From NCBI GenBank assembly GCA_964491155.1, contig CAZBFG010000001.1, forward strand, positions 4,604-68,603: a stretch of 64,000 bases of DNA, read 5' to 3'. Position numbers and translations under genes: made by a program. How positions within the stretch are numbered: the first letter of the stretch is position 1; every line of letters starts with the position of its first letter. The notes under the pieces are model-generated. The model was not told the DNA's origin. It made no database searches and worked only from the letters and a program-made list of their open reading frames with translations. The DNA comes from an uncultured Bdellovibrionales bacterium. Its GTDB lineage: Bacteria; Patescibacteriota; Minisyncoccia; Moranbacterales; UBA1568. This document shows positions 2,182 through 34,047 of the stretch, in pieces.

Positions 2182-4284
2182 ATGAATCTCGCCCCTTTGT
2201 TTTCTCCTCGCTCTATCGCTGTCATCGGTGCCTCGACCAAACCAGGAAGTGTCGGCAATACACTGACAGAAAACTTGCTCCGCTACGGTTACACCGGAAA
2301 AGTCTATCCGATCAATCCAAAAGCCACAACACTTTTTGACCTCCCCTGCTTCGCCAGTATTCACGACATCAAAGAAGCAATAGACCTGGCCATCATCATT
2401 ATCCCCGCTGCTTTGGTGCCACAGGCTCTGCGCGAAGTCGGTGAAAAAGAAATCAAGGCTGCTATCATCATCTCGGCCGGTTTCAAAGAAACAGGTGCGG
2501 CTGGTGCTACTCTCGAAAATGAACTCTGCGAGATTGCAGAAGAATATGGCATTGCCCTCCTTGGTCCAAACTGTCTCGGATTTATTCATCCCAAGCTTGG
2601 ACTCAATGCTTCTTTTGCCAGTGGCATGCCAAAGCAAGGATCGGTGGCTTTTTTTTCTCAAAGCGGTGCGCTCTGTACTGCCCTCCTCGACCTCACTGCC
2701 GAAAAAGTAGGATTTTCCGCCTTTGTCAGTGATGGCAACAAAGCCATCTTGAACGAAAATCATTTTCTTCGTCACTTTGCTGCCGATGAAGAAACAAACG
2801 TCATCGGCTTTTATTCCGAAGGCCTGATCAATGCTCCCGAGGTCATCGCGACTGGGCGCGGTATCCTGGCTCGACCGGAGGCCAAACCAATCATTGCTCT
2901 CAAATCGGGTACTACCTCTGCTGGAACTGCTGCCTCCAGTTCTCATACGGGCGCCCTGGCCGGGAGCGATGCTGCCTATCAGGCTCTCTTTACCCAGGCT
3001 CGTATCATCCGCGCCAGTTCTCTCAAGCACCTCGCCGAGCTCCTCACAGTCTTTTCACAAAATCCACTCCCTCAGGGGAAAAATATCGCCATCCTCACCA
3101 ATGCCGGAGGCCTGGGAGTACTCGCTACGGACGCTGCCGAAAAACACGGACTCAAACTCGCAACCCTCTCCCCTGAAACCACCGCGCGCTTGGATGTCTT
3201 GCCGCCATCGGCTTCACGAAAAAATCCTGTTGATGTCCTCGGTGATGCACTGGCTGATCGCTATCGTCTAGCCCTCGAAGCCCTGGCCGTGGATACACAA
3301 GTAGATATGATATTGGTTATTGTCACACCACAAACCGTGACTCAAGCCAAAGAAACAGCCGAAGCCATTGCTGATACCAAAAAGCACTGTGCCAAACCCA
3401 TCGTCGCTATTTTTGCTGGTGCGGCAGCATTCACTGACGGCTTTCCTATACTCAAGAATAACAACATTGCCACACTGACTTATCCAGAAGATGGTGCTCG
3501 GGCACTGGCAGCGCTCGCCCAGATAGCGGCCTGGCGAAAACAATCCATGCCTACGCCTTTTTCACTCGATGCGCTTGATACAAAAAAAGCGCGAACTATC
3601 ATTGATAGCGCACGAGAAGAGGAGCGCACTACCCTCTACGAAACAGAAGTCTGGGACATACTCTCAGCCTATGGCTTTCAGTTTCTCCGGAGCCACGCCG
3701 TAAAGAGCAAAGAAGAAGCTCTCGAAGCCGCCAAGAGCTTCACCGGAAAACTCGCCATGAAAATCATCTCACCAGATATCACCCACAAATCTGATGCTGG
3801 CGGTGTTTTGCTTAATATAGAGCCACAAGAAGCGGATGTGAAATACGACGAACTCATGGCTCGCGTGACCGAGCGAGTTCCAAGCGCTACACTCGAAGGA
3901 GCGCTCATAGTAGAAATGGCCGAAACCGGTGGCCGTGAAATTATTCTCGGGATGAAAGAAGAACCGGGCCTCGGCAAACTCCTCATGGCCGGTCTCGGCG
4001 GTATCTTTGTCGAAACATTCAAAGATGTGGCCTTTCGTTTTGCGCCACTGACAGAAGAAGATGCCCACGAGATGCTCCATGAGCTCAAGAGTCTACCCCT
4101 CCTCGAGGGCGCCCGTGGACAAGATGGCGTCGATATCCCTACCATCGTCACGGCACTCGGCCGTCTCTCACAACTCGTCACAGACTTCCCGGAAATAGCT
4201 GAACTCGATATCAACCCCCTTCTCTCGTTCAAAGAACCAACCCGCTTCCGTGTCCTTGATGCCCGCATCACACTGAAAAAATAG
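2182..4284 (+). CDS. Acetate--CoA ligase (ADP-forming) / acyl-CoA synthetase (NDP-forming), alpha and beta domains fused
   Basis: 700 aa; N-terminal CoA-binding Rossmann motif (SIAVIGASTKPGSVGN), a succinyl-CoA-synthetase-like middle domain and a C-terminal ATP-grasp domain. Confidence 0.8.
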   Translation: MNLAPLFSPRSIAVIGASTKPGSVGNTLTENLLRYGYTGKVYPINPKATTLFDLPCFASIHDIKEAIDLAIIIIPAALVPQALREVGEKEIKAAIIISAGFKETGAAGATLENELCEIAEEYGIALLGPNCLGFIHPKLGLNASFASGMPKQGSVAFFSQSGALCTALLDLTAEKVGFSAFVSDGNKAILNENHFLRHFAADEETNVIGFYSEGLINAPEVIATGRGILARPEAKPIIALKSGTTSAGTAASSSHTGALAGSDAAYQALFTQARIIRASSLKHLAELLTVFSQNPLPQGKNIAILTNAGGLGVLATDAAEKHGLKLATLSPETTARLDVLPPSASRKNPVDVLGDALADRYRLALEALAVDTQVDMILVIVTPQTVTQAKETAEAIADTKKHCAKPIVAIFAGAAAFTDGFPILKNNNIATLTYPEDGARALAALAQIAAWRKQSMPTPFSLDALDTKKARTIIDSAREEERTTLYETEVWDILSAYGFQFLRSHAVKSKEEALEAAKSFTGKLAMKIISPDITHKSDAGGVLLNIEPQEADVKYDELMARVTERVPSATLEGALIVEMAETGGREIILGMKEEPGLGKLLMAGLGGIFVETFKDVAFRFAPLTEEDAHEMLHELKSLPLLEGARGQDGVDIPTIVTALGRLSQLVTDFPEIAELDINPLLSFKEPTRFRVLDARITLKK

Positions 4285-4349
4285 AGTAAAGAAAAAACAG
4301 CCGACCGTTGTTGCGGGAGACTGCTCTATAAAAATTCGCTCGCAGGCGT

Positions 4350-4862
4350 TCAGGTTCCCAGGGTGCTATGTTTCACTGTTTGCCTGATGATCGAGTCCCT
4401 CACTCGCTCAAAGTGCTGCCTGGAAAAGCTCCGAAGGACCACTCCGACTTCCAGCGGTGTTTGCAAGACGCTCACCGGTGGACGTAGTCCCTTGTCGCCA
4501 AACCACAAAGGAACAGACCCGCACTCAACCCGAAAGTTCGGGGTCTTCCGGTTTTGGAGCACCATAACCTCGCACTTTGCCAAGTGTTCCCGACTGTAAC
4601 CAACCGGCATGGGCACAAGATGCGGAGCAACCTCTTGTTGCAGATCGGCCATCAGCTTCCGCACCCGCTTCGGTTCTTTCCCACCCGGGATAACAAAATC
4701 CACCGGGACATAGATATCCTCTGCCACACCATCCTTGGGGACATACGTGACCGCCAAGTCCGTGGTAGCACCATGCGCGAAACTGCCAATGGCACCAACG
4801 GCCAAAATGGCCAGAGCGAGAATCGCCCAGCCGAGTACCCGCAGAAAAACACCATTCTTCAT
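4350..4862 (-). CDS. Hypothetical exported or membrane protein, in high-GC cassette 1
   Basis: N-terminal hydrophobic segment (WAILALAILAVGAIGSFAHG); the local GC is clearly higher than in the flanking genes; no recognisable domain. Confidence 0.5.
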   Translation of the reverse strand: MKNGVFLRVLGWAILALAILAVGAIGSFAHGATTDLAVTYVPKDGVAEDIYVPVDFVIPGGKEPKRVRKLMADLQQEVAPHLVPMPVGYSREHLAKCEVMVLQNRKTPNFRVECGSVPLWFGDKGLRPPVSVLQTPLEVGVVLRSFSRQHFERVRDSIIRQTVKHSTLGT

Positions 4863-4928
4863 GTCACCCTCCTCAGGGTTGGTTTTGAAACAACTGAACC
4901 ACTTAGAGGCGAGGCCTCTAAGTTGACC

Positions 4929-5933
4929 TTACACTACCTTGTTCCATTTTAGGAACCTTGCGATGTACATGTCAAACCAATGCGTACGAACCGTTGGTTC
5001 ATGTGCGTATTTTTCTTTCAGGTAGGCATAAGTTTTTTCCAAACCTACCTCCAAGCTCGTCATAGGATAAAAACCAAATTCTTCGTTGGCTCGACCGATG
5101 TCGAGCACGATTTTTTGCACATCAAACGGACGCTTTTCCAAACGCTTGATACGGGGCATCGACTGAGTAGTTTTTGATAACATCAGTACCAATTCAAAAA
5201 GAGCAACTCCTCGACCGCTCCCGACATTATAGGTCGAGTTCTTGTGCTGTTCGGAAAAATTTTCAGCAATAAAGCTCGTCACATCCTTCACATAAACATA
5301 GTCACGCACCGTGTTACCATACAAATCAAGCGGCTCGTGCTTCATCATATGTTTCATAAAGATCGGAATTGCCCCCTGAATACCATTGGGATCCTGACGT
5401 TCACCATAGGGATTAGCAATGCGATAAATAACAAATGATAATCCATGCTGCCGACGGTAAAAATGCAAATGCTCTTCAATAGCAAGTTTGGTCACGGCAT
5501 ATGGTGACATAGGACGAGCCTGTGTTGTCTCACTAGCTACTTCTTCCAGAGCATTACCATACACGGCACCACCAGATGAAGGATAGATAATTTTTTTCAC
5601 GCCATGTTTCACGCACAGATCAAGGAGCTGGAGTGTACTCTCCAGGTTAAGTTTGATTTCTTTCTGTGGATCATTGGCCGTCGAAGCGGGCGTGCTGAGT
5701 GAAACGAAATGAAAAACATAATCGACACCCTTAAGGGCACGTGACACGTGCCACTTATTAAGGAAATTGCCTTTGTAAAATTCAATTTTTCCCTTGAGAT
5801 GTTTCAAATTCTTGATCCGTCCTTTTTGGAAACGATCAAACACGCGGACATCGTAACCACGAGCCACAAGATCGTCTATCAGATGACTCCCGAGGAACCC
5901 ATCCCCGCCGAGTACCAGACATTTCTTTGCCAT
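4929..5933 (-). CDS. NAD-dependent epimerase/dehydratase (UDP-sugar 4-epimerase-like, SDR family)
   Basis: Begins MAKKCLVLGGDGFLGSHL (a GxxGxxG motif) and has a YxxxK region; the track start at 5939 is TTG and the ATG at 5933 is preferred. Confidence 0.8.
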   Translation of the reverse strand: MAKKCLVLGGDGFLGSHLIDDLVARGYDVRVFDRFQKGRIKNLKHLKGKIEFYKGNFLNKWHVSRALKGVDYVFHFVSLSTPASTANDPQKEIKLNLESTLQLLDLCVKHGVKKIIYPSSGGAVYGNALEEVASETTQARPMSPYAVTKLAIEEHLHFYRRQHGLSFVIYRIANPYGERQDPNGIQGAIPIFMKHMMKHEPLDLYGNTVRDYVYVKDVTSFIAENFSEQHKNSTYNVGSGRGVALFELVLMLSKTTQSMPRIKRLEKRPFDVQKIVLDIGRANEEFGFYPMTSLEVGLEKTYAYLKEKYAHEPTVRTHWFDMYIARFLKWNKVV

Positions 5934-6007
5934 ATACAAAAACCCGATTGAAAGTTAACGGGTCATCATACACTGTTTTTTGTATTTTGTCAAGTGTCAG
6001 AAAGTGA

Positions 6008-9457: not shown

Positions 9458-10279
9458 TCAGTTCCAGTAAGCCCGAGGGACTCGGATGGTGACGTACTTG
9501 CCACCCGTGTCGCCGACCCATTCGGACATCCACGACTCGCAGTTGTTGGCCGGGTAAGGGCTCCGGTTCTTCTCGCTCTTCGGATCCTCACAGTGCAGGT
9601 CGAACCCGCTGTAGGCATTGTCCATGCCGCGCCACCAGTCGAGGCCGACTTGCAGCCTGGCCGGACCAACGATCGCGACTTCCATCTCCACCAGATAGCG
9701 GGCGTCCCGTTTGTTGTCCAGGCGCCGCCCGGTCCAGTTGTGGAAAAGACGACGAGCGACTTTGCCCGGAAAGACATTGTAGACCCCGCCTTCGTAGTCG
9801 TAGACAAGGTCATTTTCGCCTGTTCCGTCGGTCTCGCCGTACCACTTCTCGACCTCATGACCGCGCGCAGTCATCTGGATCCGCGGAAAAATCCCACCTG
9901 CATCCACGTTTTCTTCACTCGTAGCATTGAACGTGATGGTCTGAAGCAGCCGTTTCGGACTGTTCTTGCCACGCTGTTCGTAGACTTTCCACGAGCGAAT
10001 CGAGACACGAGATGCGCCTCCTGTGTCACAGGGAACAGCGTTTACCACCGTGATGTGACTGATGGCCGCATGAAAGTTCGGTGGCGGCGTTTCCCGACCG
10101 GGATGGTGGTGCTCATTCTTCCAGATGGCACCCGACGGCACCAACGGTAGATTGTTCACTGGTGTCCCCGGAGCACATGGTTTGGTAACCGGGTTTTGTG
10201 CCCACAGTGACGATGAGCACAAGAGCCAGACGATGGCCAAAAAAAACCTCAATGCTTTCGTCACTTGGACTCCTTTCAT
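9458..10279 (-). CDS. Secreted hypothetical protein (high-GC island)
   Basis: Signal peptide MKGVQVTKALRFFLAIVWLLCSSSLWAQ; an AAGGAG ribosome-binding site; about 60% GC. Confidence 0.6.
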   Translation of the reverse strand: MKGVQVTKALRFFLAIVWLLCSSSLWAQNPVTKPCAPGTPVNNLPLVPSGAIWKNEHHHPGRETPPPNFHAAISHITVVNAVPCDTGGASRVSIRSWKVYEQRGKNSPKRLLQTITFNATSEENVDAGGIFPRIQMTARGHEVEKWYGETDGTGENDLVYDYEGGVYNVFPGKVARRLFHNWTGRRLDNKRDARYLVEMEVAIVGPARLQVGLDWWRGMDNAYSGFDLHCEDPKSEKNRSPYPANNCESWMSEWVGDTGGKYVTIRVPRAYWN

Positions 10280-10288
10280 CAGTTAAGT

Positions 10289-10741
10289 TCAGCAGCCCGA
10301 GGACTGCAGGTTCTTGACGTGCATCTCACCGTCGACTCCTTGGAGTCCGATGCGCACGGCGCCGTCCGTCATGTTCGGCGGGAAAACCCATTCCCGCTTG
10401 ACGGATCGGAACTCATCAGACGACCCCTGCTTGAAGTCCGGTGCCCACTTCTGTTTGCCACCGGCCATGATCTCGAAATCGAAATGAGGCCCATGGTAGG
10501 AAGCAGTCCCGCCCTTCACGCCCGTAGCCTTGTACTCGGCCGAGAGCGTGAACTTCTTGCCAGCGCAACTCGCCGGCAAGACATAGATCAGTCGCGGGAA
10601 GTCATCTCCACCGCTCTGACCACGAATGACGTACGTGTCACCGTTCTTAGTGACATCACCACCTTCCATCTTCCACACCACCTGGGCGGTGGCATTGACC
10701 GAAAAAAGAGCGGCCAAAAGCGCTAAAAACTTGGTTTGCAT
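10289..10741 (-). CDS. Small secreted hypothetical protein (high-GC island)
   Basis: Signal peptide MQTKFLALLAALFSVNATAQ; the track start at 10753 is TTG and the ATG at 10741 is preferred. Confidence 0.6.
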   Translation of the reverse strand: MQTKFLALLAALFSVNATAQVVWKMEGGDVTKNGDTYVIRGQSGGDDFPRLIYVLPASCAGKKFTLSAEYKATGVKGGTASYHGPHFDFEIMAGGKQKWAPDFKQGSSDEFRSVKREWVFPPNMTDGAVRIGLQGVDGEMHVKNLQSSGC

Positions 10742-10865
10742 GGTTTGCTCCAATTGAAAAGGACCAGAATTCGTGCGTTCGCATCACGCGAACAAAGAAG
10801 TATAGAATAAAATTCGCTTTCTGTCAATAAAGAGAAACTCGTTTGAGTTTCAGAAATATTTTGGA

Positions 10866-10910
10866 TAAAAAAAGAGGGGTTTCGCAGTACATCGTACTTT
10901 GAAACCCCTA
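10866..10910 (-). terminator. Intrinsic terminator after 10958-11608
   Basis: On the minus strand, aggggtttc...gaaacccct is followed by ctttttttat. Confidence 0.6.
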
Positions 10911-10957
10911 TTGTGTAACCGCGTCATTGACGCGGGACTTGTGGCGGCCTAGCCAGG

Positions 10958-11608
10958 CTACTGGAAGCTGCCGGCGAAGAACTGCTTGGCGGCCTTGGTC
11001 GGCAACACAACCTTGGTAGCCTTGCCGTCGGCACCGCGCTCGACGATGAGCAGTGTGATGGTTTGCCCACGGCTGTTCTTGCCGCGTGACTCACCAAAGG
11101 GGTGGGAACCCCAGGCCCGTGTTCCGTCCTTGAGTTCGATCACAGGGATCGCGCCCAAGAGGTCGTAGTCGCCGGCCACGTCGACCTGATAGGTACCACT
11201 GGCGCCCGTGATGGGTGCGCAGGCAACCCGCGGGTCGTCGAGCTTGAGACTCGGAAGGCTGGCAGTGCCTGGCCAATCACTGCCGCGCTTCAGAATGCAC
11301 TGACGTGCACCTTCGAACGCCGCCGGATTGGTCTTGTAGGACAACACCCAGTCCATGACACCCTTCTTGCCATCCTCGCTTTGCAGCTTGGTAGCGTTGT
11401 AGGTGGCGCCAGGGTCGGTTTTCCACACGGCCGCGATGCCGTGGATGGTCAACTCGACCTTGTCATTGAGAACCGGGCCGATCTGGAGCGTCGTCGCGCC
11501 GGCGCCTTGGGTACCGTTGACCTTGAAGGTCGTCTTGGCCGGTTCGGCCGCGGAAACGCTCAAGGCACATGCGAAAGCCGCGAGCGCGGCGAAGATCTTG
11601 CTGATCAT
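10958..11608 (-). CDS. Secreted hypothetical protein (high-GC island)
   Basis: Signal peptide MISKIFAALAAFACALSVSAAEP; an AGGAG ribosome-binding site. Confidence 0.6.
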   Translation of the reverse strand: MISKIFAALAAFACALSVSAAEPAKTTFKVNGTQGAGATTLQIGPVLNDKVELTIHGIAAVWKTDPGATYNATKLQSEDGKKGVMDWVLSYKTNPAAFEGARQCILKRGSDWPGTASLPSLKLDDPRVACAPITGASGTYQVDVAGDYDLLGAIPVIELKDGTRAWGSHPFGESRGKNSRGQTITLLIVERGADGKATKVVLPTKAAKQFFAGSFQ

Positions 11609-11643
11609 GGTGTGCTCCTAAGTTGCACGGTGGGAAAGTTGAT

Positions 11644-11690
11644 TGCGTCTGTAAAATCAACTCACCCGAGTTGATAGATTCACAGACGCG
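11644..11690 (-). promoter_or_regulatory. Long imperfect hairpin in the 5' UTR of 10958-11608
   Basis: gcgtctgtgaatctatcaactc pairs with gagttgattttacagacgc (8 bp then 6 bp); it lies between the promoter and the ribosome-binding site. Confidence 0.4.
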
Positions 11691-11745
11691 AGGAACTGAG
11701 TTCTCCGATGTTTACCTCTTTGACGAGATACCCACTGGAGGAATC

Positions 11746-11774
11746 AGTATACACCTTTTCTTACTTCTTGTCAA
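11746..11774 (-). promoter_or_regulatory. Sigma70-type promoter, TTGACA-17-TATACT
   Basis: On the minus strand a consensus -35 (ttgaca) is followed by a 17-nt spacer and a -10 (tatact), about 130 nt upstream of the ATG at 11608. Confidence 0.6.
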
Positions 11775-11824
11775 TAGCTAGAAAGAGAATGTTTTAAGGC
11801 TCAAGGGAGCCTAAAAAGATCAAA

Positions 11825-11852
11825 GGCAGGTCGTTCGGATGAACTTCCTGCC
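11825..11852 (-). terminator. Intrinsic terminator after 11995-13617
   Basis: On the minus strand, ggcagg...cctgcc is followed by tttgatcttttt. Confidence 0.5.
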
Positions 11853-11994
11853 CTGATTGCGACGATGTCGCTAACTGCCCTGCTGCGTTTCATTTACCTA
11901 AGCCGATATGTCGCATCCAAATGATTTTCATCATTCGTCTTGGCGCATACCCTTTTTATAGACTTTCGTACAAATTCTACGCAGCTGTGTTCAG

Positions 11995-13617
11995 TCAGTC
12001 GTCAGCGTCAGAGGGCGCGGTCTTCCACTGCTTCTGGGGACTATTCATCCCCTTAGGCAGAATGACCATGCCATCCTTGTCGAGTCGGCCACCGGCCTTT
12101 TCGATCGCGGCCGTGAATTGCGCCTTGCGCGCTTGTTCACGATGCACGTAGACCGTCTTGCGGATGTCCCAGCTCCAGCCGAAACCGAAGAGTGAACCGC
12201 CGTTCAACAGGTCATAGTTGCGACCGAGGCCTATGAAGAGCCGCTCTTCCTTATCGCTCCACTGGAAGCGCCAGTTGGCCGTTTCTGCCAGGCTCGGAGC
12301 CTCTTGGAACCAGCCGAGCGCGAACCAGAGCTTGGTACCGATCTTGTCATCCTCTTCCGAAAGGTCGAGGAGACCGATACGTCCACCCACGTTCACGACA
12401 TGACTGAGCCTGGAGTCCGGGTCGGCCAGTGGTTGACCAAAAACGGAGTGTTCGGCCTCACCTCCCGTCGGCTTGAAGGCCGAAACGAAGAGTTGGTACT
12501 TGAAGAAGGACTTCTCCCCCCTCAACTCGCGTGCGTAGTTGTTGTACGCGAGCGTGATACCACGAAGGTCGAATTGCCGTTGGCTCTTGTAAGCCGCTTG
12601 CTCGCCGTTCTCTTCCAACGTGGCCCACGGCAGCAGCTTGAGACCGAAGTCGTAGCCACCTTCGTAAGCACTGTACTTGTAGGCCGGCCCGTAACCACCG
12701 AGGTGACCACTGAAACCAAAGCCTGTATCAGTCTTGCCGTGCCAGCTGCTGAAAGTGCCGCCGATACCGAACGCGTGTTCGGCACCGGAACCTTCAATGA
12801 AGAGACCGTAGAGCGCTCCAGACACGAACGTCGATTGCGCTGTCCGATCGTACTCCTTGCCGCCCACCAGTTCCCAGTCCCAGCGACGCACTGCCTCTTC
12901 AGGCGGTACTTCTTTGGGTTCGGGTTCTGGTATAACTTCTGGCGTCGGTTCTGGCTCTTTCTGCGGCTGCGGTTCTGGTTCCGGCTGTGGCTCAGGCTGT
13001 GGTTCTGGTTCCGGCTGTGGCTCAGGCTGGGACGTCACCATGAAGGTGATGTTCCCACATGAGAGCATATCGGCCAGCGTCTTGCCGGTCGAGAGCTTCC
13101 ATGTCTCCATCGCTTCGGGTCGCCCACCTTGTTCTGGTGTGCAAACCCTGACGTCACGGAGAAACTTGATCGTACCATCTTTGGAACGGAATGGCATGGC
13201 TTTGAACACCATGTCACTAGATACTAGCTCACGAACTCCACGCTCGAGAGAGACCAGAGCTTTCGCCTCGACTTTCTCTTCTGCCGTCAGATCCGGATTG
13301 GCATCGATTGCCTCCAGCCGAAGCTTGAGAGAGCCATAACGATTCCACGGCGCCCTATTCAAGTTGATGCAGGCTTGGGGCTGCTTCGCTTCGACAGCTG
13401 TACCACGCTCCGGGAACCGGATGATGGCACCAGCCTTGATGACGTTGCAGTCGTCCAGTTGATTGAACAGGCAGAGCACCTGCCAATCATGACCGAACTT
13501 CTTGGCAATCGATCCGAGCGTCTCGCCGGGATTGATTTTGTGAGGCGGCGTTTGATCGCCAGCCCACGCCCCCACCACTCCAAAGAGCAGCAAGAGAACC
13601 ATATACCATTTCTTCAT
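11995..13617 (-). CDS. Secreted LysM-like domain protein with a PEPQ-repeat linker and a Gly/aromatic-rich C-terminal domain
   Basis: Signal peptide MKKWYMVLLLLFGVVGAWAG; a LysM-like segment (INPGETLGSIAKKFGHDWQVL...IKAGAIIRFP); the linker QPEPQPEPEPQPEPQPEPEPQPQKEPEP; a C-terminal ~300 aa rich in G/F/Y/W. Confidence 0.6.
   Translation of the reverse strand: MKKWYMVLLLLFGVVGAWAGDQTPPHKINPGETLGSIAKKFGHDWQVLCLFNQLDDCNVIKAGAIIRFPERGTAVEAKQPQACINLNRAPWNRYGSLKLRLEAIDANPDLTAEEKVEAKALVSLERGVRELVSSDMVFKAMPFRSKDGTIKFLRDVRVCTPEQGGRPEAMETWKLSTGKTLADMLSCGNITFMVTSQPEPQPEPEPQPEPQPEPEPQPQKEPEPTPEVIPEPEPKEVPPEEAVRRWDWELVGGKEYDRTAQSTFVSGALYGLFIEGSGAEHAFGIGGTFSSWHGKTDTGFGFSGHLGGYGPAYKYSAYEGGYDFGLKLLPWATLEENGEQAAYKSQRQFDLRGITLAYNNYARELRGEKSFFKYQLFVSAFKPTGGEAEHSVFGQPLADPDSRLSHVVNVGGRIGLLDLSEEDDKIGTKLWFALGWFQEAPSLAETANWRFQWSDKEERLFIGLGRNYDLLNGGSLFGFGWSWDIRKTVYVHREQARKAQFTAAIEKAGGRLDKDGMVILPKGMNSPQKQWKTAPSDADD
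12936..13034. repeat. Tandem 30-bp DNA repeat encoding the PE/PQ linker
   Basis: ggttctggttccggctgtggctcaggctgt appears in at least two perfect copies plus degenerate copies. Confidence 0.7.
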
Positions 13618-14543
13618 GGCAAACTCCTTGTCTGTAGGTTTCTGGGTGGGTCGCTCGGAAGCAACCCGGCTTGGGTTTCTTCCTTCACGGCGTCACCTTT
13701 CTTCCCGCATCCGTTGTTCGCCACAGATATGTTATGCGGCAACGACAGCACTGCGCCGACAATCATAAACGTCGCGCTGGGCACTGCCGAAGCACTACCG
13801 CATGTGACGAGTCTGTCGAGCTTATTCACGCCCTTTGTCAGGGCGCCAACATGAACGATGTCCGGCTGCGTCGAGAACACTTCCCCATCATCTCCCATCG
13901 GGAGAGGAATGGGGTAGCGTGCTTCCAGCCACACGAAGAACTTGCGTCCTGCGGGGTGGTCGCGCCGGAAATTCGAATACTCAGGAAATGGCGAGGGATG
14001 GGCGGTGAAGAACTGATTACTCAGCTCAAAGGCGCCATTCTCGATATTTACCAAAGCACCCTTGGTCGTCATGACTGTCTTGCCATCATTGAACCGGACG
14101 AGCCAGTAGCCCCGATTGTACTCCGCCACCCTTCCAGGAGGCAAGAGTACAAAAAGCTCTGTTTCGTCAGGATTCATGATGGTGTCAAACACTTCAACTC
14201 TTCCATCGACGTAGTAGGCGGTTCGCCAGACCGAACAGATGACTGGTCGAACTGACTTCCCAACCTTGTACGAGCGACTCGGGTCACGGATCTCACTGCG
14301 CCAGGCCTCAGGGAGAGGCTTGGGCAACTTGATCATGGCGACCGTGTAGCTGAAGGTCTTGGTAACATCACCACGTACTGATACGCAGCGCCACGGCAGT
14401 TGTACACCACCTTGATCGCCTTGCTTCACCTTCGTGGTCTCGATGTTGTAGCCAATATCCTCTCTGACCTCTTCGATCTTCCGATCGATACTGGCGCACC
14501 CCGTGAGGAGGGCCAGAGCGATCATACCAATGATACGCAACAT
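13614..14543 (-). CDS. Lipoprotein of unknown function, overlapping the downstream LysM gene by 4 nt
   Basis: Lipobox MLRIIGMIALALLTGCAS; a GGAG ribosome-binding site ahead of the ATG at 14543; the track start at 14609 is an upstream extension. Confidence 0.6.
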   Translation of the reverse strand: MLRIIGMIALALLTGCASIDRKIEEVREDIGYNIETTKVKQGDQGGVQLPWRCVSVRGDVTKTFSYTVAMIKLPKPLPEAWRSEIRDPSRSYKVGKSVRPVICSVWRTAYYVDGRVEVFDTIMNPDETELFVLLPPGRVAEYNRGYWLVRFNDGKTVMTTKGALVNIENGAFELSNQFFTAHPSPFPEYSNFRRDHPAGRKFFVWLEARYPIPLPMGDDGEVFSTQPDIVHVGALTKGVNKLDRLVTCGSASAVPSATFMIVGAVLSLPHNISVANNGCGKKGDAVKEETQAGLLPSDPPRNLQTRSLP

Positions 14544-14667
14544 GGATATCTCCTTGTGGGTTGCACCAAACAAACTAACTGAACACAAATTGGTAAGGAT
14601 CAAAAACAACAGATCCTAGGAAGAAAGCAGTGGTGACGATGACGCCGCACCGCTCTCTTCCCAGGAA

Positions 14668-17542: not shown

Positions 17543-18739
17543 TTACTTGAAATTTCTCAGTCCAACAAACAAATATTCCGAATCAAAGGGATCATAAGAG
17601 ACAAACGATGCACCCCGATCAACTGTCATCCCCGTCACAAACCAGGTCTGTCCGCTATCGATGGATTTGTAAAAAGCTTTGCCGGCTACAAACACGATCT
17701 CATCGGGATTTTTAGGGTTGACTGCGATAGAGCGAATCGGAAACTTCTTGGCACTCTCGATGATATTAATCTCGGTCCAGTATTTTCCAAAATCCGCACT
17801 CTTGAAAAAACCATTGCTCGTACCGGCGTAGATCACCCCTGAGCGAGTCGGATCCGAAGCGATAGAGATGATACCCGCAGGCATCTTGTTCGTTTGATTT
17901 CGTTCAGAGAGCTTGGCGGATTCCTTTTGCAGCCGCTCGGATTCCTTGGCATTGCCATTGGTCGAGGCGTCGCTTGCTCGCTTCTGGAGTGCTGCTACTT
18001 CTTTCTGCTTCTCTTCTTCCCAATCAAGCCAGGCTACTCCACCATCTCGAGAGTAGTAGAGTTTTTGACCAAAGGTCAGGAGATAGGTAGTAAACTTCTG
18101 AGTAGCATCAAACAAAATATCAGAGACCGTACCTTCAATCTTGTTTCCCACGTTCTTCCACGTCTCACCAGCGTCCGTACTCTTGACCACTGTCCCGGTC
18201 GAAGTGCCCGCAAAAATAACATTGATATCAGTCGGGTGCTGGGAAAGAGCTGTGACATTGGCCTGGACACCCGGCTCGGTATAAACTTCCTTCCATTCCT
18301 CTCCGCCATCATCTGTCCGGAAAATCTTGCCCCACTCGCCAACCACTCCCGAAGCAAACATGCGGTTGTCCGGGTCATTACGATCCAAGATGAAACTATA
18401 GATCTTTTTTGGAGGAAAGGAGATAGGTGTCCACTGCTCACCTGCATCTTCCGTTTTGAAAATACCATTGTCTACTGAACCCACATAGATAGTTCCCTGC
18501 GTATGTGGATGATAGGCGATAGAAAGGATGTCTGCCTTGGTGATAGTGGTTGTTTCATCAATCGTTGACTTGACCTCAAAGGTCTGCCCTCCATCACTGG
18601 TCCGCCACAGACTGCCCTTGGCTGGGGCGCCACTCGTAGTTGTCTCCGGCGAAAGAGATCCAGGAAGCGGGATAGTACACCCTGACAGTATAAAAGTACC
18701 CATCGCCAATACTCCTGACAACAATAATCTCTGTACCAT
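17543..18739 (-). CDS. Lipoprotein with BNR/Asp-box repeats
   Basis: Six S-x-D-x-G-x-T-W-like motifs (SDGGQTF, TEDAGEQWT, TDDGGEEWK, STDAGETWK, SRDGGVAWL, SIDSGQTWF); the signal/lipobox reads LAMGTFILSGC; the start is trimmed to the ATG at 18739. Confidence 0.65.
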   Translation of the reverse strand: MVQRLLLSGVLAMGTFILSGCTIPLPGSLSPETTTSGAPAKGSLWRTSDGGQTFEVKSTIDETTTITKADILSIAYHPHTQGTIYVGSVDNGIFKTEDAGEQWTPISFPPKKIYSFILDRNDPDNRMFASGVVGEWGKIFRTDDGGEEWKEVYTEPGVQANVTALSQHPTDINVIFAGTSTGTVVKSTDAGETWKNVGNKIEGTVSDILFDATQKFTTYLLTFGQKLYYSRDGGVAWLDWEEEKQKEVAALQKRASDASTNGNAKESERLQKESAKLSERNQTNKMPAGIISIASDPTRSGVIYAGTSNGFFKSADFGKYWTEINIIESAKKFPIRSIAVNPKNPDEIVFVAGKAFYKSIDSGQTWFVTGMTVDRGASFVSYDPFDSEYLFVGLRNFK

Positions 18740-18831
18740 ATTTGTATATAATTTCCCTTTCAGTATAGCAGAAAACTGAGCCCGAGAAAAGAAAAAACTC
18801 CTCGAGGGAGTTCTTTCCTTTTGATGAGTTT

Positions 18832-18907
18832 TGGTGGGTACAGCAGGAATCGAACCTGCGACCGTTGGCTTAAAAGGCCACTGCTCTACCGACTGAGCTA
18901 TGTACCC
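18832..18907 (-). tRNA. tRNA-Lys (anticodon TTT)
   Basis: Cloverleaf gggtaca/tgtaccc acceptor stem, D-arm gctcagtcggtagagc, anticodon loop cttttaa, T-arm ggttcgattcc, and CCA encoded. Confidence 0.85.
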
Positions 18908-18955
18908 GCAAATCAAAACAATTGTACCTGGAATGAGGCACTTTGGTCAACCCTC

Positions 18956-22002: not shown

Positions 22003-22458
22003 CTAGTTCACAGAAACGATTTCGTACTTGACGGTCGCAGCAGGAGTCGTGACCTCTACCTTGTCTCCCTTACCTTTACCCAAGAAAGCCTGACCCAGGG
22101 GTGACTCATTGGAGATTTTTCCAGCAGCCGGGTCAACTTCGTTCGAACCAACGATTTCAAAATGAAATTCCTTGCCATGGACTTTGACACCTAGCTTGGA
22201 GCCCATACCGATTGTTGAAGCACCCTTGTGTTTGGCAGCAACCACTGAATCCTTGAGCATGCCCTCGAGCTCAGCAATACGAGACTCATTCTCGTTCTGA
22301 TGGTTCTTGGCCTCGCTGTATTCAGCATTTTCAGACAGGTCACCCTGCTCTTTTGCTTCCTTGATAGCTTCCGCAATCTCCTGACGAATCTTCGTCTTGC
22401 GTTCCTCGAGCTCTACAGTCAGTTTTTTCAACCCTTCCTCAGTAAAAATTTTTGCCAT
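22003..22458 (-). CDS. greA: Transcription elongation factor GreA
   Basis: 151 aa; N-terminal coiled coil with the DLSENAEY acidic tip and a C-terminal FKBP-like domain. Confidence 0.9.
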   Translation of the reverse strand: MAKIFTEEGLKKLTVELEERKTKIRQEIAEAIKEAKEQGDLSENAEYSEAKNHQNENESRIAELEGMLKDSVVAAKHKGASTIGMGSKLGVKVHGKEFHFEIVGSNEVDPAAGKISNESPLGQAFLGKGKGDKVEVTTPAATVKYEIVSVN

Positions 22459-28634: not shown

Positions 28635-29447
28635 CTACTTCCCCTGAAAATAGTCATTGACAGCATACACCAACTGGCTGGGTGTTATTTCGGTCTTGAG
28701 AAAAGCCTGCGTCACAATACCGGCATCTTTCAACACCTTGACGCTTTCGTCTTCCATGGAAACTGATGCCGACAACAGAAATATAGGAACATTTTTCCCT
28801 TGTTCTTCGTCTCGCAATTTCTTGATGAACTCACGGCCATCCATATTGGGCATCATAACATCAGTAATGATGAGATCAAAAACTTCACTCAGTGCCGCTG
28901 CCAAACCCTGCACTCCATCTTGTTTGGCAACTACTTCATATCCTTCACTCTGCAAGCGCTTACTAAACATCTCAACAAAAACCGGCTCATCCTCAATCAA
29001 AAGAATCTTTTTCTCCAAATGTGCTCTCTCTCCCTGTGGTCGAGCATCATTGGCAGAATTTTTATCCTGCTCATTAAATTGTCGTAAAAATCGTTCAATT
29101 TCACTGACTACCTCAGAAGGTGAAAACTCTGTCTTGGAAATAAAGCCGTTGGCACCCAGTTTCAATACTTGTTCCCGATCTTCGGCACTACTCAAATTGC
29201 TAAACACTACCACTTTCAAAGTTTGGTCGTATTCCTTGTTATGACGCAGCTCTCGTAGGACTTCGATACCACTCATTTCTGGCAATACCAAATCAAGCAG
29301 AATCAAATCAAATTTTTGCTCCTGGACATACTTCAAAACAGCTTTGCCCGAAGTGGCATTGACCGTCTCAAAACCGGACGACTCCAATTTCTTTTGATAA
29401 ATCTCGGCAATAAACGGGTCATCTTCGACGAGGAGAATTTTTGCCAT
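28635..29447 (-). CDS. Response regulator with two tandem receiver domains and no output domain
   Basis: REC1 begins MAKILLVEDDP...D54-like; REC2 reads KKILLIEDEPVFVEMF...; no helix-turn-helix. Confidence 0.8.
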   Translation of the reverse strand: MAKILLVEDDPFIAEIYQKKLESSGFETVNATSGKAVLKYVQEQKFDLILLDLVLPEMSGIEVLRELRHNKEYDQTLKVVVFSNLSSAEDREQVLKLGANGFISKTEFSPSEVVSEIERFLRQFNEQDKNSANDARPQGERAHLEKKILLIEDEPVFVEMFSKRLQSEGYEVVAKQDGVQGLAAALSEVFDLIITDVMMPNMDGREFIKKLRDEEQGKNVPIFLLSASVSMEDESVKVLKDAGIVTQAFLKTEITPSQLVYAVNDYFQGK

Positions 29448-29507
29448 AGGTCATGTTGACATTTAAATCAAATGTAGGATATCAAAAAATTGGCTTATAA
29501 TCAACAT

Positions 29508-31208
29508 TTACAGACTAGCTGCCTTTCCAAGCGTCTCCACTGGGAGCTTGATGATAAACGTCGATCCCTTCCCTGAGCCTTCTGATTCGACAGAGAGCAA
29601 TCCCCCATGAGCTTCCACAAAGTTTTTGCCCACATAAAGACCAAGTCCCGTGCCGGAAACATCCAACTTCATAGTCTCCGTGCTTCTCGTGAATTTCTCA
29701 AAAAGCCGTTTACTCTCCTTTGGATCAACACCAATACCCGTATCCTTTATCCTGACAGAGACACACTTAGTATCTCCTTCAACAGTCACCGTGACACCGC
29801 CTTCTTTAGTATATTTGAGAGCATTATCGATCAAATTGGAAACCACTTCACGAATCTTATTCACGTCCAGTGTCAATTTTGGCAGAGACTTGTTCGGCAG
29901 CTTGATCTTGAGTGATAATTTTTTCTCTTTGGCCATGATCGTGAACATATCGACGATATCAGCCACAATCGGTTCCAGTTGGGCTTCGACAAAATTGTAC
30001 TGCACCCGACCGGATTCAATACGAGAAATACTAAGGAGATCCTCGACCAACTGACCCATGCGATTGTTCACTATATACACTTTGTTCAAAACATCCTGGA
30101 GTGTCATGGGAACTTTGCCATATGAACCCTCAAGTATGAGCGAAACATAACCCTTGATAGCTGTCAGTGGCGTCCTGAGCTGATGCGAAGCGATCGAAAT
30201 AAATTCCGATTTTGCCGCATCCAAACGTTTCAATTCGTTGTTTGCAATGGCCAACTCCTGCGTCAACGCCTGTAATTCCTCCTTACGCTTCACTTCTTCC
30301 TTAACAGATCGAATGAGTATAATTCCAAAGATAGAAGCCAGGATAAAGGTAGTGGCAACCAGTATGTAACTCGTCATCTCCCGGATAAAGAACAGCTGTG
30401 ATCCGATCAAAGATATAAGCCCCACCACCAATGCCTGAGCCCCAATAAGTTTTAGATTAAAAGCCTGATACTTCACAATCAAATAGGTAAGAAACCCAAG
30501 AAAAACCGGCATTCCAAAAAGTCCATACTGAAGAATTTTCCAATTATCTGGATCATCGGGATTGATAACCGAAGCAATACTCCCAGCTATATTCGCCCCG
30601 GAAAAAGAAAGAAGGAATAATACCGAACCAAGAACAAGATATACGGCTTGAACTCGAGCAGAATCTCGCGTTTTAAATATTTTCCAAATTCCATATCCAA
30701 GTAAAGTCAGAAAAAATACCACCTCAAGGAAATAAAAATAGTTAACAAGCACTCCTTGCTGCGCTTCACAAAGAGTCGCATTAAAACCAGTTATATTGTA
30801 TTGTGTGGGCAAAAGAACAAGAAAAGGAACAAAAAGCAAAGCGAATACTGCTTTATATCGCATTGCCAAATCTCGCTTTTCAATGAAAACATAGACGAAA
30901 TACACTGTGAGACAACTCACCATGTTTTCAAGAAGATTAATTATCGACCAAAAAAACATCGTTTTCCGACTGTCAGGACTACTCCAGAGAATCAAATCAA
31001 AGGCAGACCAAAGAGCGAAAAGAACTGTCACCAAAAAAAACAGCCTACTCGAGAGATCTTTTTTATTCTTAAAGAAAATAAACAGTCCCAAAAGCAAAGT
31101 GACAATCGCCGTTGGAATGTGAGAATAATACAAAATCACATTACCACTCAAAATAGAGTCCATTATTGCCTTGCAATATTCCGAGTTTGTAACAAGATTG
31201 AAATTCAT
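29508..31208 (-). CDS. Sensor histidine kinase with an N-terminal ~8-TM sensor domain
   Basis: Polytopic N-terminus, a coiled coil, the HisKA motif (SHQLRTPLTAIKGY) and a HATPase_c domain (N, G1, G2 boxes). Confidence 0.8.
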   Translation of the reverse strand: MNFNLVTNSEYCKAIMDSILSGNVILYYSHIPTAIVTLLLGLFIFFKNKKDLSSRLFFLVTVLFALWSAFDLILWSSPDSRKTMFFWSIINLLENMVSCLTVYFVYVFIEKRDLAMRYKAVFALLFVPFLVLLPTQYNITGFNATLCEAQQGVLVNYFYFLEVVFFLTLLGYGIWKIFKTRDSARVQAVYLVLGSVLFLLSFSGANIAGSIASVINPDDPDNWKILQYGLFGMPVFLGFLTYLIVKYQAFNLKLIGAQALVVGLISLIGSQLFFIREMTSYILVATTFILASIFGIILIRSVKEEVKRKEELQALTQELAIANNELKRLDAAKSEFISIASHQLRTPLTAIKGYVSLILEGSYGKVPMTLQDVLNKVYIVNNRMGQLVEDLLSISRIESGRVQYNFVEAQLEPIVADIVDMFTIMAKEKKLSLKIKLPNKSLPKLTLDVNKIREVVSNLIDNALKYTKEGGVTVTVEGDTKCVSVRIKDTGIGVDPKESKRLFEKFTRSTETMKLDVSGTGLGLYVGKNFVEAHGGLLSVESEGSGKGSTFIIKLPVETLGKAASL

Positions 31209-31244
31209 AGATATTTACACTATTTATATTTTTTACACCATCAG

Positions 31245-32099
31245 TCACTCGCTTTCTTTCATTATAGCAGAAACAACGGTCTTATATTCTTCCGGATAAT
31301 ACCTCCAATAAACATCTTCTTCAGTCTCTGCCGGAACAAGCCTCACAATAAGAGGTCTAACGCCAAAATCAGCAACTATACTCCTATATGTAGGTAAAAG
31401 AATGTTTTTTGTAAGATCACTATAAAATCCGCTCAAGAGGAAATTCTCAAAAAGAACGCCATGACAAATAAAAATTGAAAGGATATATCTATAGTATCTA
31501 CTTGCCTGCCCTCCATTTCTAGCATAATACTCAGACATATCAATTCTATTTTCAGATCCTAAAATAGAAGAAACTATACTGTGATGAAAATTAACAAGGC
31601 TTGTACCTGAAATAATTTTTACATCAGAAATTTTTTTTCCATCAAAAAAATCAAAATCCACAGCTTTTACAGACGATATTTTTCTGCCGCCCTTCTTGCC
31701 GAGTCCTTCATAAAAAACCATTTTTCCTAGATAATATTTATCCTCATTCTTGGTTACAAACTTATCACTGAGATACTCAAATCCTACCGGATCAATACCT
31801 ATACTCTTAACAGATTCTAAAAAATTTATAAGCTCAAAATTTGGACTCATGACATGCCGAGAGATCACTGCTCTCGGGGAAAGCTTCACTACTTCTGGAA
31901 TATCTTGCCCTAAGAATTCTTCTATTTTTGATTTTAACGCCGCATTATTCCACCGCTTCTTTATCTCTTCCTTTGCTTCATCAAGTGACATGTATATAGA
32001 ATCCAGCTCTGCTCTTGCATTCAAATCTTCTTGCGACATAAGACAGACACTATTATTCTCCAGTATTACTCTCAACATTCGTCTCGGGAAATTCCGCAC
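31245..32099 (-). CDS. Hypothetical cytoplasmic protein (AT-rich gene)
   Basis: 284-aa ORF with no recognisable motif; GC roughly 33%. The start is uncertain (GTG 32099, ATG 32078 or ATG 32039) and the first two options overlap the upstream gene. Confidence 0.45.
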   Translation of the reverse strand: MRNFPRRMLRVILENNSVCLMSQEDLNARAELDSIYMSLDEAKEEIKKRWNNAALKSKIEEFLGQDIPEVVKLSPRAVISRHVMSPNFELINFLESVKSIGIDPVGFEYLSDKFVTKNEDKYYLGKMVFYEGLGKKGGRKISSVKAVDFDFFDGKKISDVKIISGTSLVNFHHSIVSSILGSENRIDMSEYYARNGGQASRYYRYILSIFICHGVLFENFLLSGFYSDLTKNILLPTYRSIVADFGVRPLIVRLVPAETEEDVYWRYYPEEYKTVVSAIMKESE

Positions 32100-32553
32100 T
32101 CATCACTTCCTCTTCGGGCTCCAAAACCTCAACTGGCGCATTGAGCATGTTGTACGCTTCCGGATCACTACACTCTGATCCATCCTCCAAACTCGCATCA
32201 CAAAGAGTTATCACACATCCAACTTCATCTTCCTTACACTCAAGTGGCACACAGTCTTCGCTAGCAGGATCACACAGTGGGATATTCTTAGCATTTCTAT
32301 CAATCAGCTTATAATACGAAGTATCTGCCACTGGATCACCTGTGCATTCCTCTACGGTCGCATCACAATGGTACACAAAACAAGCCTCAGTCGTAGGATC
32401 GCACTCTATCTGTGATTGAAGAGGATAGTCTCGTAGAATAAAAAACCGATAGAAAGACAACCCGATTGAAATCGTTGTAGCAATAACAAACACCGCAATT
32501 AGTACCCTGCTACTCCTCTTTACCACAGCATCGCTCTTTGTCTCGATTTCCAT
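32053..32553 (-). CDS. Single-pass membrane protein with a Cys-rich acidic ectodomain
   Basis: TM helix VLIAVFVIATTISIGLSFYRFFIL; about 14 Cys residues in a ~110-aa extracytoplasmic region; acidic C-terminus. Confidence 0.5.
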   Translation of the reverse strand: MEIETKSDAVVKRSSRVLIAVFVIATTISIGLSFYRFFILRDYPLQSQIECDPTTEACFVYHCDATVEECTGDPVADTSYYKLIDRNAKNIPLCDPASEDCVPLECKEDEVGCVITLCDASLEDGSECSDPEAYNMLNAPVEVLEPEEEVMSAEFPETNVESNTGE

Positions 32554-32562
32554 AAAAAAATT

Positions 32563-33516
32563 TTAACTAATCAAGTATATCCCTATCGCAATAATACAAC
32601 ATGCGATGATTTTTGTCTTAAAAGCGACCAGCTGATCTTGATAAATCTGCCTGGATTTCTCTCTATTTGTCTTCAAAAAGATTACGACGAGCAGTAAACT
32701 GAGTACCATTACAAACACTGGCGCCAAGCTTCCGATAACAGCAACAAATGATACGGCCGGACTCAGATCGATGGCTCGCTGCAAAGCCACAACAGCCAAT
32801 AAATTCAAAACTTCAGCGAGAACAAAAACGAGGAAGAAATTCCGACTGATATCGTAGATATGTTTCATCCGAGAGCCTATCGACTTATGATCGAGCAGAG
32901 ATATGAGCAAGCCACTCACGGTAGCTCCAATGGAAAAAAGCAAAAAGCAGCTCCAAAAATCATTCCCTGTCGCTTGAAATGCCATCGTTTGAAACACCAT
33001 GCTTAGGGAAAGGAAAACAAAGGCTCCTATCATCAGGGAAAACACTTTCCCAAAGTTTTTTTCTTTAATTTCACCATGAAATGAAAATAGCATGGCTCCT
33101 GCAAAGGCTATAGCAATACCGATATAGTGCATCACAGATAACTGCTCCCCCACAAGAAGCCAGGCCAAAAATGGTACCAATGGAACGCTCAAATTAGCCA
33201 GCGCCTGCACCACTACCATATCATTCGAGACAAATAGAGTCTTGAAGTAAAAGTAATAGGAGAACATAAGAAAAGCACCGCTTGAGAAAGCGATGCCGGC
33301 AACTGTCCAACCTGGAAAAATAAATTCTACGAGTCCAAATAAAGGAAGGAGCCACGGGAGGAGCTGGAAGAGTGCATTGATGATAACACCGTCCCACTCA
33401 TCCTCATATACACCGCTCACAAAGTAGATGTCTATGATATTCACAAGAGCCCAAAAGAATGGCGCTAGAAATGCGACAAAAATCCAATGACTCCATAAAT
33501 ACCCAAAAAAATCCAT
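32563..33516 (-). CDS. DMT-superfamily (EamA-like) 10-TM permease
   Basis: 317 aa with two repeated 5-TM halves. Confidence 0.6.
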   Translation of the reverse strand: MDFFGYLWSHWIFVAFLAPFFWALVNIIDIYFVSGVYEDEWDGVIINALFQLLPWLLPLFGLVEFIFPGWTVAGIAFSSGAFLMFSYYFYFKTLFVSNDMVVVQALANLSVPLVPFLAWLLVGEQLSVMHYIGIAIAFAGAMLFSFHGEIKEKNFGKVFSLMIGAFVFLSLSMVFQTMAFQATGNDFWSCFLLFSIGATVSGLLISLLDHKSIGSRMKHIYDISRNFFLVFVLAEVLNLLAVVALQRAIDLSPAVSFVAVIGSLAPVFVMVLSLLLVVIFLKTNREKSRQIYQDQLVAFKTKIIACCIIAIGIYLIS

Positions 33517-33539
33517 ATCTGAGAAAAGAAAAATTCTTC

Positions 33540-33929: not shown

Positions 33930-34047
33930 AAAACAAGAGAAAAAATATATTTCACCAACAGAAAAATAATAACACAAAAACACATTTTTGGAAAGAAAAA
34001 AGGACTGCAACTTGTGCAACCCCGTTGAAGTTTAGTAGCCCTCGTGG

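Follow-up and report, generated by a model that had tools for sequence, protein, structure and literature searches.

A hypervariable gene at a fixed junction, probably a one-gene replacement island for an exported envelope protein, in an uncultivated bacterium of Moranbacteria type

A minus-strand gene of raised GC (guanine plus cytosine) content, at positions 4350 to 4862 of the 64-kb stretch of contig CAZBFG010000001.1 analyzed here (the window), raises the question of whether it arrived from elsewhere or is a resident whose history differs from that of its neighbors. This open reading frame (ORF), labeled X, lies between genes for an acetyl-CoA synthetase and a sugar epimerase, and the initial annotation took it for a foreign module inserted between the two, one of a dispersed set with similar single-gene cassettes at 34048-34584 (cassette 2) and 39990-40547 (cassette 3). 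We argue here that X is a resident of this position. The explanation we favor, with a probability of roughly 0.6, is that a single gene here forms a replacement island: it would encode an exported envelope protein, the alleles of which are swapped by recombination. The X family is a new, unannotated protein family that behaves as a known kind of locus.

If X had been inserted, some relatives should differ in whether they carry it, and this is not what the genomic context of its homologues shows. A word-indexed search returned nine homologues, 52-99% identical to X, and an exhaustive profile search returned 25 clusters at 50% identity, 154 to 182 aa in length save for two multi-stretch matches of 227 and 467 aa. 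Genomic context was available for 13 distinct alleles, namely those of the window, of the family proteins P0001, P0003-P0009, P0012, P0020, and P0028, and of a chimera on the related contig L028; the remote members among them are 37% (P0012), 24% (P0020), and 26% (P0028; 35% by local alignment) identical to X. Every related contig that reaches far enough (L001-L005, L009-L018, L019/L020, L021, L022-L024, and L028) has a homologue flanked by the same epimerase and, convergently, the same synthetase, and the further neighbors are usually kept as well, with a GT4 glycosyltransferase, a methyltransferase, and a Wzy_C protein on one side and a beta-helix protein, a second GT4 protein, and a DUF4012 protein on the other. 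Among the related contigs that span the epimerase/synthetase junction, no empty junction was found. X is not flanked by direct or inverted repeats, has no adjacent tRNA (the window tRNAs are at 18.8 and 20.3 kb only), and has no mobility gene beside it, its neighbors being metabolic and envelope genes. A scan of viral contigs with a narrow alignment recovered no relative of X, and a metagenome scan added one new locus only. No part of 4290-4925 has a second copy in the window, where X is also the sole copy of its family (the family hidden Markov model matches 1 of 580 ORFs). The reading of X as an insertion element was rejected for want of flanking repeats and of a viral copy. Because the same position is occupied in every relative examined, X is not a foreign insertion but a fixed component of an envelope-glycan neighborhood, and the claim that it was inserted falls.

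What differs between genomes is the content of the position. Between the window and its closest relative, L019, the epimerase is 93% and the synthetase 94% identical at the protein level and X only 35%; the corresponding values for L013 and L022 are 98, 97, and 44%, and L003 and L012 share a 100% identical epimerase and a 97% identical GT4 protein with an X of 72%. Compared with the group of GC-richer relatives, the window has 86-88% identity in the epimerase, 83% in GT4, 72-73% in the synthetase, and 56-61% in X. Over the relatives as a whole the epimerase is 80-93% and the synthetase 70-94% identical, versus 34-61% for X. The boundaries of the divergent segment are sharp. Nucleotide identity between the window and L019 is 0.84-0.91 in the flanking genes but only 0.40-0.60 between about 4895 and about 4300, beyond which it rises again, so that the hypervariable, replaced segment (4300-4895) comprises the leader, the coding region, and most of the terminator. 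The same profile is seen between L003 and L012, with flanks at 0.95-1.00 and X at 0.44-0.92, whereas the difference between L003 and L005 is confined to the leader and the signal-peptide part.

The alleles bear several marks of exchange. Synonymous divergence (dS) in X is 0.97 between L003 and L012 versus 0.14-0.28 in the flanks, and overall is 3-7 times that of the flanks; because of this excess we take the X alleles to be older than the genomes that carry them, not merely fast-evolving. The ratio of nonsynonymous to synonymous divergence (dN/dS) is about 0.2-0.3, which places the protein under purifying selection. Identity is mosaic along the gene: L005 and L016 are identical (1.00) in the signal-peptide segment and 0.67 identical in the C-terminal part, L005 and L018 show the reverse (0.45 and 1.00-0.99), and L012 and L018 again pair a shared signal-peptide segment (0.98) with a divergent C-terminal part (0.69). 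Across alleles, nucleotide identity in the signal-peptide segment is either 0.76-1.00 or 0.32-0.47, indicating discrete and interchangeable types. The L028 allele is chimeric, joining a "type C" signal peptide to a "type 1" core and a "type 3" C-terminus, and P0020, P0028, and P0032 carry signal peptides of the near family on mature domains only 24-26% identical. A recombination index of the PHI (pairwise homoplasy index) type was 0.21-0.32 versus 0.51-0.57 in permuted data, with 0 of 1000 permutations as low as observed. Relationships of X are also incongruent with those of its flanks, in that the genome nearest to the window by flanks (L019) holds a 35% allele and more distant genomes hold alleles of 56-61%. 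The locus thus combines the same position between conserved genes and sharply bounded divergent content with incongruence, mosaicism, and raised dS, the signs of exchange expected of a replacement island.

We propose that X is a fixed gene in the order Wzy-like, methyltransferase, GT4, epimerase, X, convergent synthetase, beta-helix, GT4, DUF4012, and that deeply divergent alleles of it circulate in the clade. These would be swapped whole or piecewise by homologous recombination, with the conserved epimerase and synthetase genes serving as homology arms, and the signal-peptide, middle, and C-terminal segments would be able to move independently. The protein would be surface exposed or secreted, and its diversity may be kept by diversifying or frequency-dependent selection exerted by phages or by a host or partner cell. 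Two features of the surroundings may bear on local recombination: L019 has an extra gene for an 83-aa GIY-YIG (homing-endonuclease-like) protein at 4593-4844, between GT4 and the epimerase and about 1.1 kb from X, and the GT4-epimerase intergenic region (window 5940-6007) is a second divergence hot spot between other relatives (identity 0.33-0.55). Either may be relevant to exchange at this junction.

Comparison with known systems places X closest to replacement flexible genomic islands. The diversity of these islands in aquatic prokaryotes has been attributed to phage recognition of exposed structures (Lopez-Perez, Martin-Cuadrado and Rodriguez-Valera 2014, PMC4033161), and the X locus resembles them in being the same in all strains, in its divergent content and conserved flanks, in the signs of recombination at its boundaries, and, by prediction from sequence, in encoding an exposed cell structure. 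X differs from them in being a single 0.6-kb gene whose alternatives are still homologous (24-99%) rather than nonhomologous gene sets, in recombining inside the gene to give mosaics, and in having as host a bacterium of the Candidate Phyla Radiation (CPR), and a role of phage at X would be by extension only. Exchange within a gene has its own precedents, since cultured bacteria have mosaic, antigenically variable surface-protein genes shuffled by recombination. By analogy X appears similar to these in its conserved flanks, recombined segment types, scaffold under purifying selection, and high allele age; unlike them, it has neither a sequence nor a fold relationship to any such family, the 64-kb window holds no silent donor cassettes or repeats, and its variation is seen between genomes.

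Two further comparisons concern CPR bacteria themselves. Diversity-generating retroelements (DGRs) are common in CPR genomes, and X is like their targets in showing localized hypervariation in a small exported CPR protein. DGR targets vary in a short region near the C-terminus, whereas X varies along its full length, with the leader, the signal peptide, and indels all involved. A template repeat is absent from the window, the called neighbors of all loci include no reverse transcriptase, and for lack of both a DGR-target reading was rejected. In a Gracilibacterium, a single extremely variable gene encodes a protein with an N-terminal transmembrane segment that is predicted to be extracellular (PMC6851277). 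That gene is a nucleotide-variable PTD repeat array with conserved amino acids, whereas X has no repeats and its amino acids diverge.

That X is exported can be predicted from its N-terminus. The protein begins MKNGVFLR, followed by about 20 hydrophobic residues and AHG/A, and by inspection this region (codons 1-31, positions 4770-4862, minus strand; X sequence and alignments A1 and A2) has the positively charged n-region, hydrophobic core, and small residues at -3 and -1 of a Sec-type signal peptide, with no lipobox cysteine. Alignment A2 contains 31 family members, and its first row lacks Met1, so its numbering is one lower than that of the full protein. A hydrophobic N-terminus with an A-x-A-type site is present in 30 of the 31, with AHA/A, VSA/A, and YA/N among the relatives. 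Of all parts of X the signal peptide varies most, with a column entropy of 1.3-1.6 bits versus 0.3-0.8 in the mature part. We infer that X is exported by Sec and that the signal peptide is cleaved. Most members end in a conserved tail, either TLG[ST] or (G)P.L.T, which places a C-terminal Thr or Ser after an Arg-rich helix; this tail could be a sorting or recognition tag.

The remainder of the protein, about 139 aa encoded at 4353-4769 (minus strand), is predicted by AlphaFold2 to form an alpha/beta domain. The model, numbered one below the protein, comprises an N-terminal helix, strands at 36-41 and 53-56, a helix at 64-77, a beta-hairpin at 94-102/107-115, and a C-terminal helix at 135-165. 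With the 31-sequence alignment the predicted local distance difference test (pLDDT) was 89.4 and the predicted TM-score (pTM) 0.75, and with a shallow alignment of 10 sequences the pLDDT was 40.8, so the model became confident only once remote members were added. The first mature strand (LAVTYVPKD..YVPVD) is the most conserved part of X. Within the near family 67 columns are invariant, and across A2 the only invariant columns are two cysteines: Cys97 (C96 in A2; codon 4572-4574, minus strand), which is present in 31 of 31 members and sits in hairpin strand 94-102, and its cross-strand partner Cys114 (codon 4521-4523, minus strand). The hairpin register (96 + 113 = 102 + 107) puts them opposite each other in the model, and a Cys97-Cys114 disulfide probably clamps the hairpin. 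A gene for a DsbA-like thioredoxin is present in the window at 36202-36846. Pfam gave no significant match for X or any of the 31 family members; NCBIfam, PHROGs, and PADLOC gave none for the window protein, and the PDB held neither a sequence match nor a convincing fold relative of the model, the fold matches being in the noise range. A scan of GTDB species representatives yielded secretin matches only, rejected as spurious, which shared an EDIYVPVD motif, and a literature search on Moranbacteria surface proteins found nothing.

Such a protein might serve as a phage receptor, a host-attachment factor, a secreted effector, or a glycan accessory factor, and two of these roles amount to different explanations of the locus. 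The better surviving of the two makes X a secreted polymorphic effector, such as a bacteriocin-like toxin or a signaling or host-directed factor, with its diversity arising from antagonism or self-recognition. X would suit that role in being small, in having a signal peptide and a probable disulfide, in varying so extremely between alleles while its locus stays fixed, and in lacking any anchor to membrane or wall other than its N-terminal helix. However, no co-varying immunity or receptor gene adjoins X, the neighbors stay 93-100% identical while X changes, PADLOC, PHROGs, and Pfam gave no toxin signal, and X always sits among envelope-glycan genes, which suggests a place in the envelope. These objections are not decisive, and we regard an effector as unlikely. 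It is more doubtful that X is an accessory factor to the neighboring glycan pathway, perhaps acting outside the cytoplasm as a chaperone or adaptor for the products of the Wzy, GT4, and epimerase proteins, and variable so as to match a variable glycan. The enzymes do not vary with X, the epimerase being 100% and GT4 96-97% identical where X is 72-88%; the fold matches lie in the noise, and X and the synthetase gene are convergent neighbors that do not form an operon.

The base composition that drew attention to X remains to be accounted for. The gene has a GC content of 0.558 and a third-position GC (GC3) of 0.620, compared with 0.437 and 0.442 for the epimerase, 0.518 and 0.496 for the synthetase, and 0.489 ± 0.050 and 0.526 ± 0.092 (mean ± sd) for all 52 window genes. 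The statement that its GC is markedly higher than in both neighbors thus holds against the epimerase, whereas the excess over the synthetase (0.558 versus 0.518) is slight. X ranks 6th of 52 in GC, with z-scores of 1.4 (GC) and 1.0 (GC3) that rise to 2.4 and 2.2 against the 44 genes left once the other flagged high-GC genes are removed. By 40-codon blocks, GC3 is 0.60-0.68 in all four blocks of X versus 0.28-0.62 in the flanks, and a binomial test of X against the pooled flank GC3 gave p = 1.4e-4. The GC step is therefore real but modest. Export alone fails to explain it, because GC is not raised in other exported proteins encoded in the window (beta-helix protein, 0.456; DsbA-like protein, 0.459; M10 peptidase, 0.474). 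The proposed compositional and synteny check accordingly returned a modest excess on the first count and no insertion on the second.

Comparison between genomes suggests where the step comes from. Among GC-richer relatives, where local GC is 0.53-0.56, the GC3 of X (0.65-0.74) equals that of its neighbors (0.61-0.71), and in the two GC-poorer genomes, where local GC is 0.48-0.50 (that of the window, to which L009 is a 99% twin, and L019), X has a GC of about 0.56 and a GC3 of 0.59-0.62 next to neighbors at 0.44-0.54. A composition deviating from the host genome, as looked for in genomic islets, is thus found to a modest degree in the window and is absent in the GC-richer relatives. The GC of X stays at 0.55-0.61 in all genomes compared while local GC spans 0.48-0.56, a rough constancy that fits a shared, exchanged pool of alleles. 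Plausibly, then, the step in the window marks an imported allele: the pool would have a GC of about 0.55-0.61, the sub-lineage would have drifted to about 0.48, and the imported allele would not yet have equilibrated. Two points weigh against this account of the GC, in that first-position GC (GC1) in X is also high (0.64) and synonymous sites are saturated between the window and most relatives. Across the window GC3 rises as conservation falls, from 0.44-0.47 in the epimerase, GT4, and beta-helix genes (83-87% identical to relatives) to 0.62 in X (56-61%) and 0.60-0.79 in the Wzy and island genes (about 70%), and among the GC-richer relatives GC3 is about 0.6-0.7 for every gene in this series. 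This suggests that the envelope genes that vary are supplied from a shared pool of higher GC. The opposite outlier is a 284-aa ORF at 31245-32099 (minus strand; GC 0.354, GC3 0.288), which has no Pfam match, adjoins a 7TM (seven-transmembrane) histidine kinase, and lies in an AT-richer stretch at 28635-34019 (GC 0.34-0.43).

The divergence and composition of X could also be read as the outcome of rapid evolution in place, with a weakly constrained, lineage-specific gene mutating fast without allele exchange and taking its GC from amino-acid composition or local mutation bias. The high GC1 and the tendency of less conserved window genes toward higher GC3 would fit this, as would a nonsynonymous divergence (dN) that is the highest of the neighborhood (0.12-0.36 versus 0.00-0.22 in flanking genes of the same pairs). 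Yet fast evolution of a lax protein does not account for a synonymous divergence that is raised as well, nor for nucleotide segments 98-100% identical shared by alleles that are 45-69% identical elsewhere; the permutation result and the disagreement between X similarity and flank similarity also count against it, and dN/dS, the invariant columns of the near family, and the confident fold indicate real constraint. We consider this account very unlikely. The weakest alternative, that X is a foreign cassette inserted between synthetase and epimerase as one of a dispersed family, can point to GC and GC3 above both neighbors, to the self-contained form of the gene, which has a ribosome-binding site and a terminator of its own, and to the fact that cassette 3 does behave in this way, but it founders on the presence of the gene at one and the same junction in all relatives, even where it is only 24% identical, on a GC3 equal to that of the neighbors in GC-richer relatives, on the lack of flanking repeats, a mobility gene, or a viral copy, and on the absence of any sequence or profile relation to the other cassettes or island proteins, and we dismiss it as extremely improbable. 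What stands of the supposed foreign origin of X is a history distinct from that of its neighbors, with alleles exchanged and shuffled; the foreign inserted module does not.

The resemblance noted between X and the other two cassettes is one of architecture (170-185 aa, raised GC, a GGAGG-type site, and an own terminator), and the proteins are unrelated. The remote-homology check suggested for the three cassette proteins, both among themselves and against the island proteins, was negative, with BLASTP E values of at least 0.03 and hhalign probabilities of 0.1-0.2%, and three cassettes that share no sequence or profile similarity do not form one dispersed set. Clear terminators with a GC stem and T-run are few in the window, occurring after X, 9458-10279, 22003-22458, cassette 2, cassette 3, and 52980-53495, and their common design reflects stand-alone transcription units among long operons. 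Cassette 2 (minus strand) encodes 178 aa with a signal peptide and has a GC3 of 0.69, its own ribosome-binding site, and a clean terminator; it is an ORFan whose sole match among 5.8 billion clusters is a 100% identical copy. Cassette 3 (minus strand, GC3 0.76) encodes 185 aa without a signal peptide, carries a conserved EHSPNGHI.FC motif, and lies between a GT4 gene and the genes for an M10 peptidase and PheRS-beta. It has six homologues, 49-76% identical, and no Pfam, PHROG, PADLOC, or PDB match. Its 75% homologue (L025 8001-8570) follows fusA, between the S12-S7-EF-G and EF-Tu-S10 genes, with a GC3 of 0.81 versus 0.40-0.54 in its neighbors. There, six genes at L025 8001-13926 (the cassette-3 homologue and genes for a PaaX_M-like, a 242-aa, a 195-aa, a DnaJ-domain, and a 643-aa protein) interrupt the usually compact str-operon region between fusA and tuf. 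From its distribution cassette 3 looks like a genuinely mobile single gene, and it is the one that the foreign-module idea fits best.

A larger high-GC island, whose terminators had been likened in design to that of X, lies at 9458-14609. Its genes at 10958-11608, 11995-13617 (LysM), and 13614-14609 are syntenic with L002 1031-5442 and about 70-72% identical, and the window and L002 share the order M50, 225 aa, 331, 540, 216, Wzy. Missing from L002, where the gap is 108 bp, are only 9458-10279 (273 aa) and 10289-10753 (154 aa), both without a Pfam match. By this comparison most of the island (10958-14609) is not foreign.

At the level of expression signals, X is a real gene, as first annotated: an ATG-started minus-strand ORF of 170 codons with an N-terminal hydrophobic segment, a ribosome-binding site, and a terminator. 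The GGAGG site (4868-4872, minus strand) was read 5 nt upstream of the ATG, and sequence and scan place it within a 5-bp mini-hairpin, ACCCU-GAGG-AGGGU (4866-4879, minus strand). The CCCU(U)GA(A)GGAGGG mini-hairpin, in which the Shine-Dalgarno sequence pairs with an upstream CCCU, is common to four otherwise divergent leaders (window, L019, L003, and L012); there is no covariation, so that structure and plain sequence conservation are inseparable, and the element may have a regulatory role. Immediately past the epimerase stop codon, a perfect 10-bp hairpin (4901-4923, minus strand) lies on the conserved side of the upstream boundary, and hairpins of other sequence occupy the same position in L019 and L003; it is probably an epimerase terminator or a leader structure. 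A sigma-70-like match, TTGACA-18-TAAAAT (11 of 12 positions; 4946-4975, minus strand), inside the 3′ end of the epimerase gene is a possible, weak candidate promoter for X, found by consensus scan only; the scan of the region gave 3 matches versus 1.4 ± 1.2 expected, and the consensus is uninformative for the host phylum.

Downstream of X, folding predicts an interrupted GC stem followed on the sense strand by the U-run UUUUUUCUUU (about 4288-4327, minus strand); 4 nt separate the end of this run from the synthetase stop codon. The window hairpin alone is no stronger than shuffled sequence (z -0.83). Because a hairpin and U-run recur in all eight related loci folded, on stems of different sequence that keep their pairing (z down to -4.65), we judge the predicted intrinsic (Rho-independent) terminator to be genuine, in agreement with the A-rich run and GC stem originally remarked on after X.

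The flanking genes have clear identities. The upstream neighbor (4929-5939, minus strand) encodes an NAD-dependent sugar epimerase/dehydratase (Pfam PF01370, E 6e-49), and upstream of it are the GT4 glycosyltransferase, the methyltransferase, and the Wzy_C protein. The downstream neighbor (2182-4284, plus strand), convergent with X, encodes an ADP-forming acetyl-CoA synthetase with the Pfam domains CoA_binding, Succ_CoA_lig, and ATP-grasp_5. Overall, the window is an unremarkable stretch of chromosome from a bacterium with a small genome. Nearly all of its genes are on the minus strand, and it includes genes for SerRS, LysRS, AspRS, PheRS alpha and beta, TyrRS, MreB, PBP2, PBP1A, SecD, ribosome recycling factor, and an RseP-like M50 protein, besides the two tRNAs. 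A 457-aa ORF at 17543-18916 (minus strand) overlaps tRNA-Lys (18832-18907) with its 5′ end, which implies a true start further downstream. Because its ribosome recycling factor shares a 90%-identity cluster with MBP7060451.1 ("Candidatus Moranbacteria bacterium"), we assign the host to an uncultivated CPR/Patescibacteria bacterium of Moranbacteria type.

For genome scans, X offers a caution: where GC shifts abruptly in one genome, the cause may be that a resident gene has taken on an imported allele, and not that foreign DNA was inserted. For the clade, the locus shows that allele exchange by homologous recombination is in operation. CPR/Patescibacteria are thought to live attached to other cells, and to our knowledge hardly any of their many hypothetical exported proteins has been tied to recognition by hosts or phages. 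We speculate that the X family is an undescribed and structurally novel specificity determinant of Moranbacteria-type CPR bacteria, one exported protein whose alleles, being interchangeable, would set phage adsorption or attachment to a host or partner, with the junction acting as a dedicated recombination hot spot and the locus as a serotype-like one, a tentative idea that may well prove wrong in this full form. Regardless of whether it holds, a gene of fixed position and constrained scaffold that presents alleles of 24-35% identity between near-identical flanks is a concrete candidate for a recognition determinant in these bacteria.

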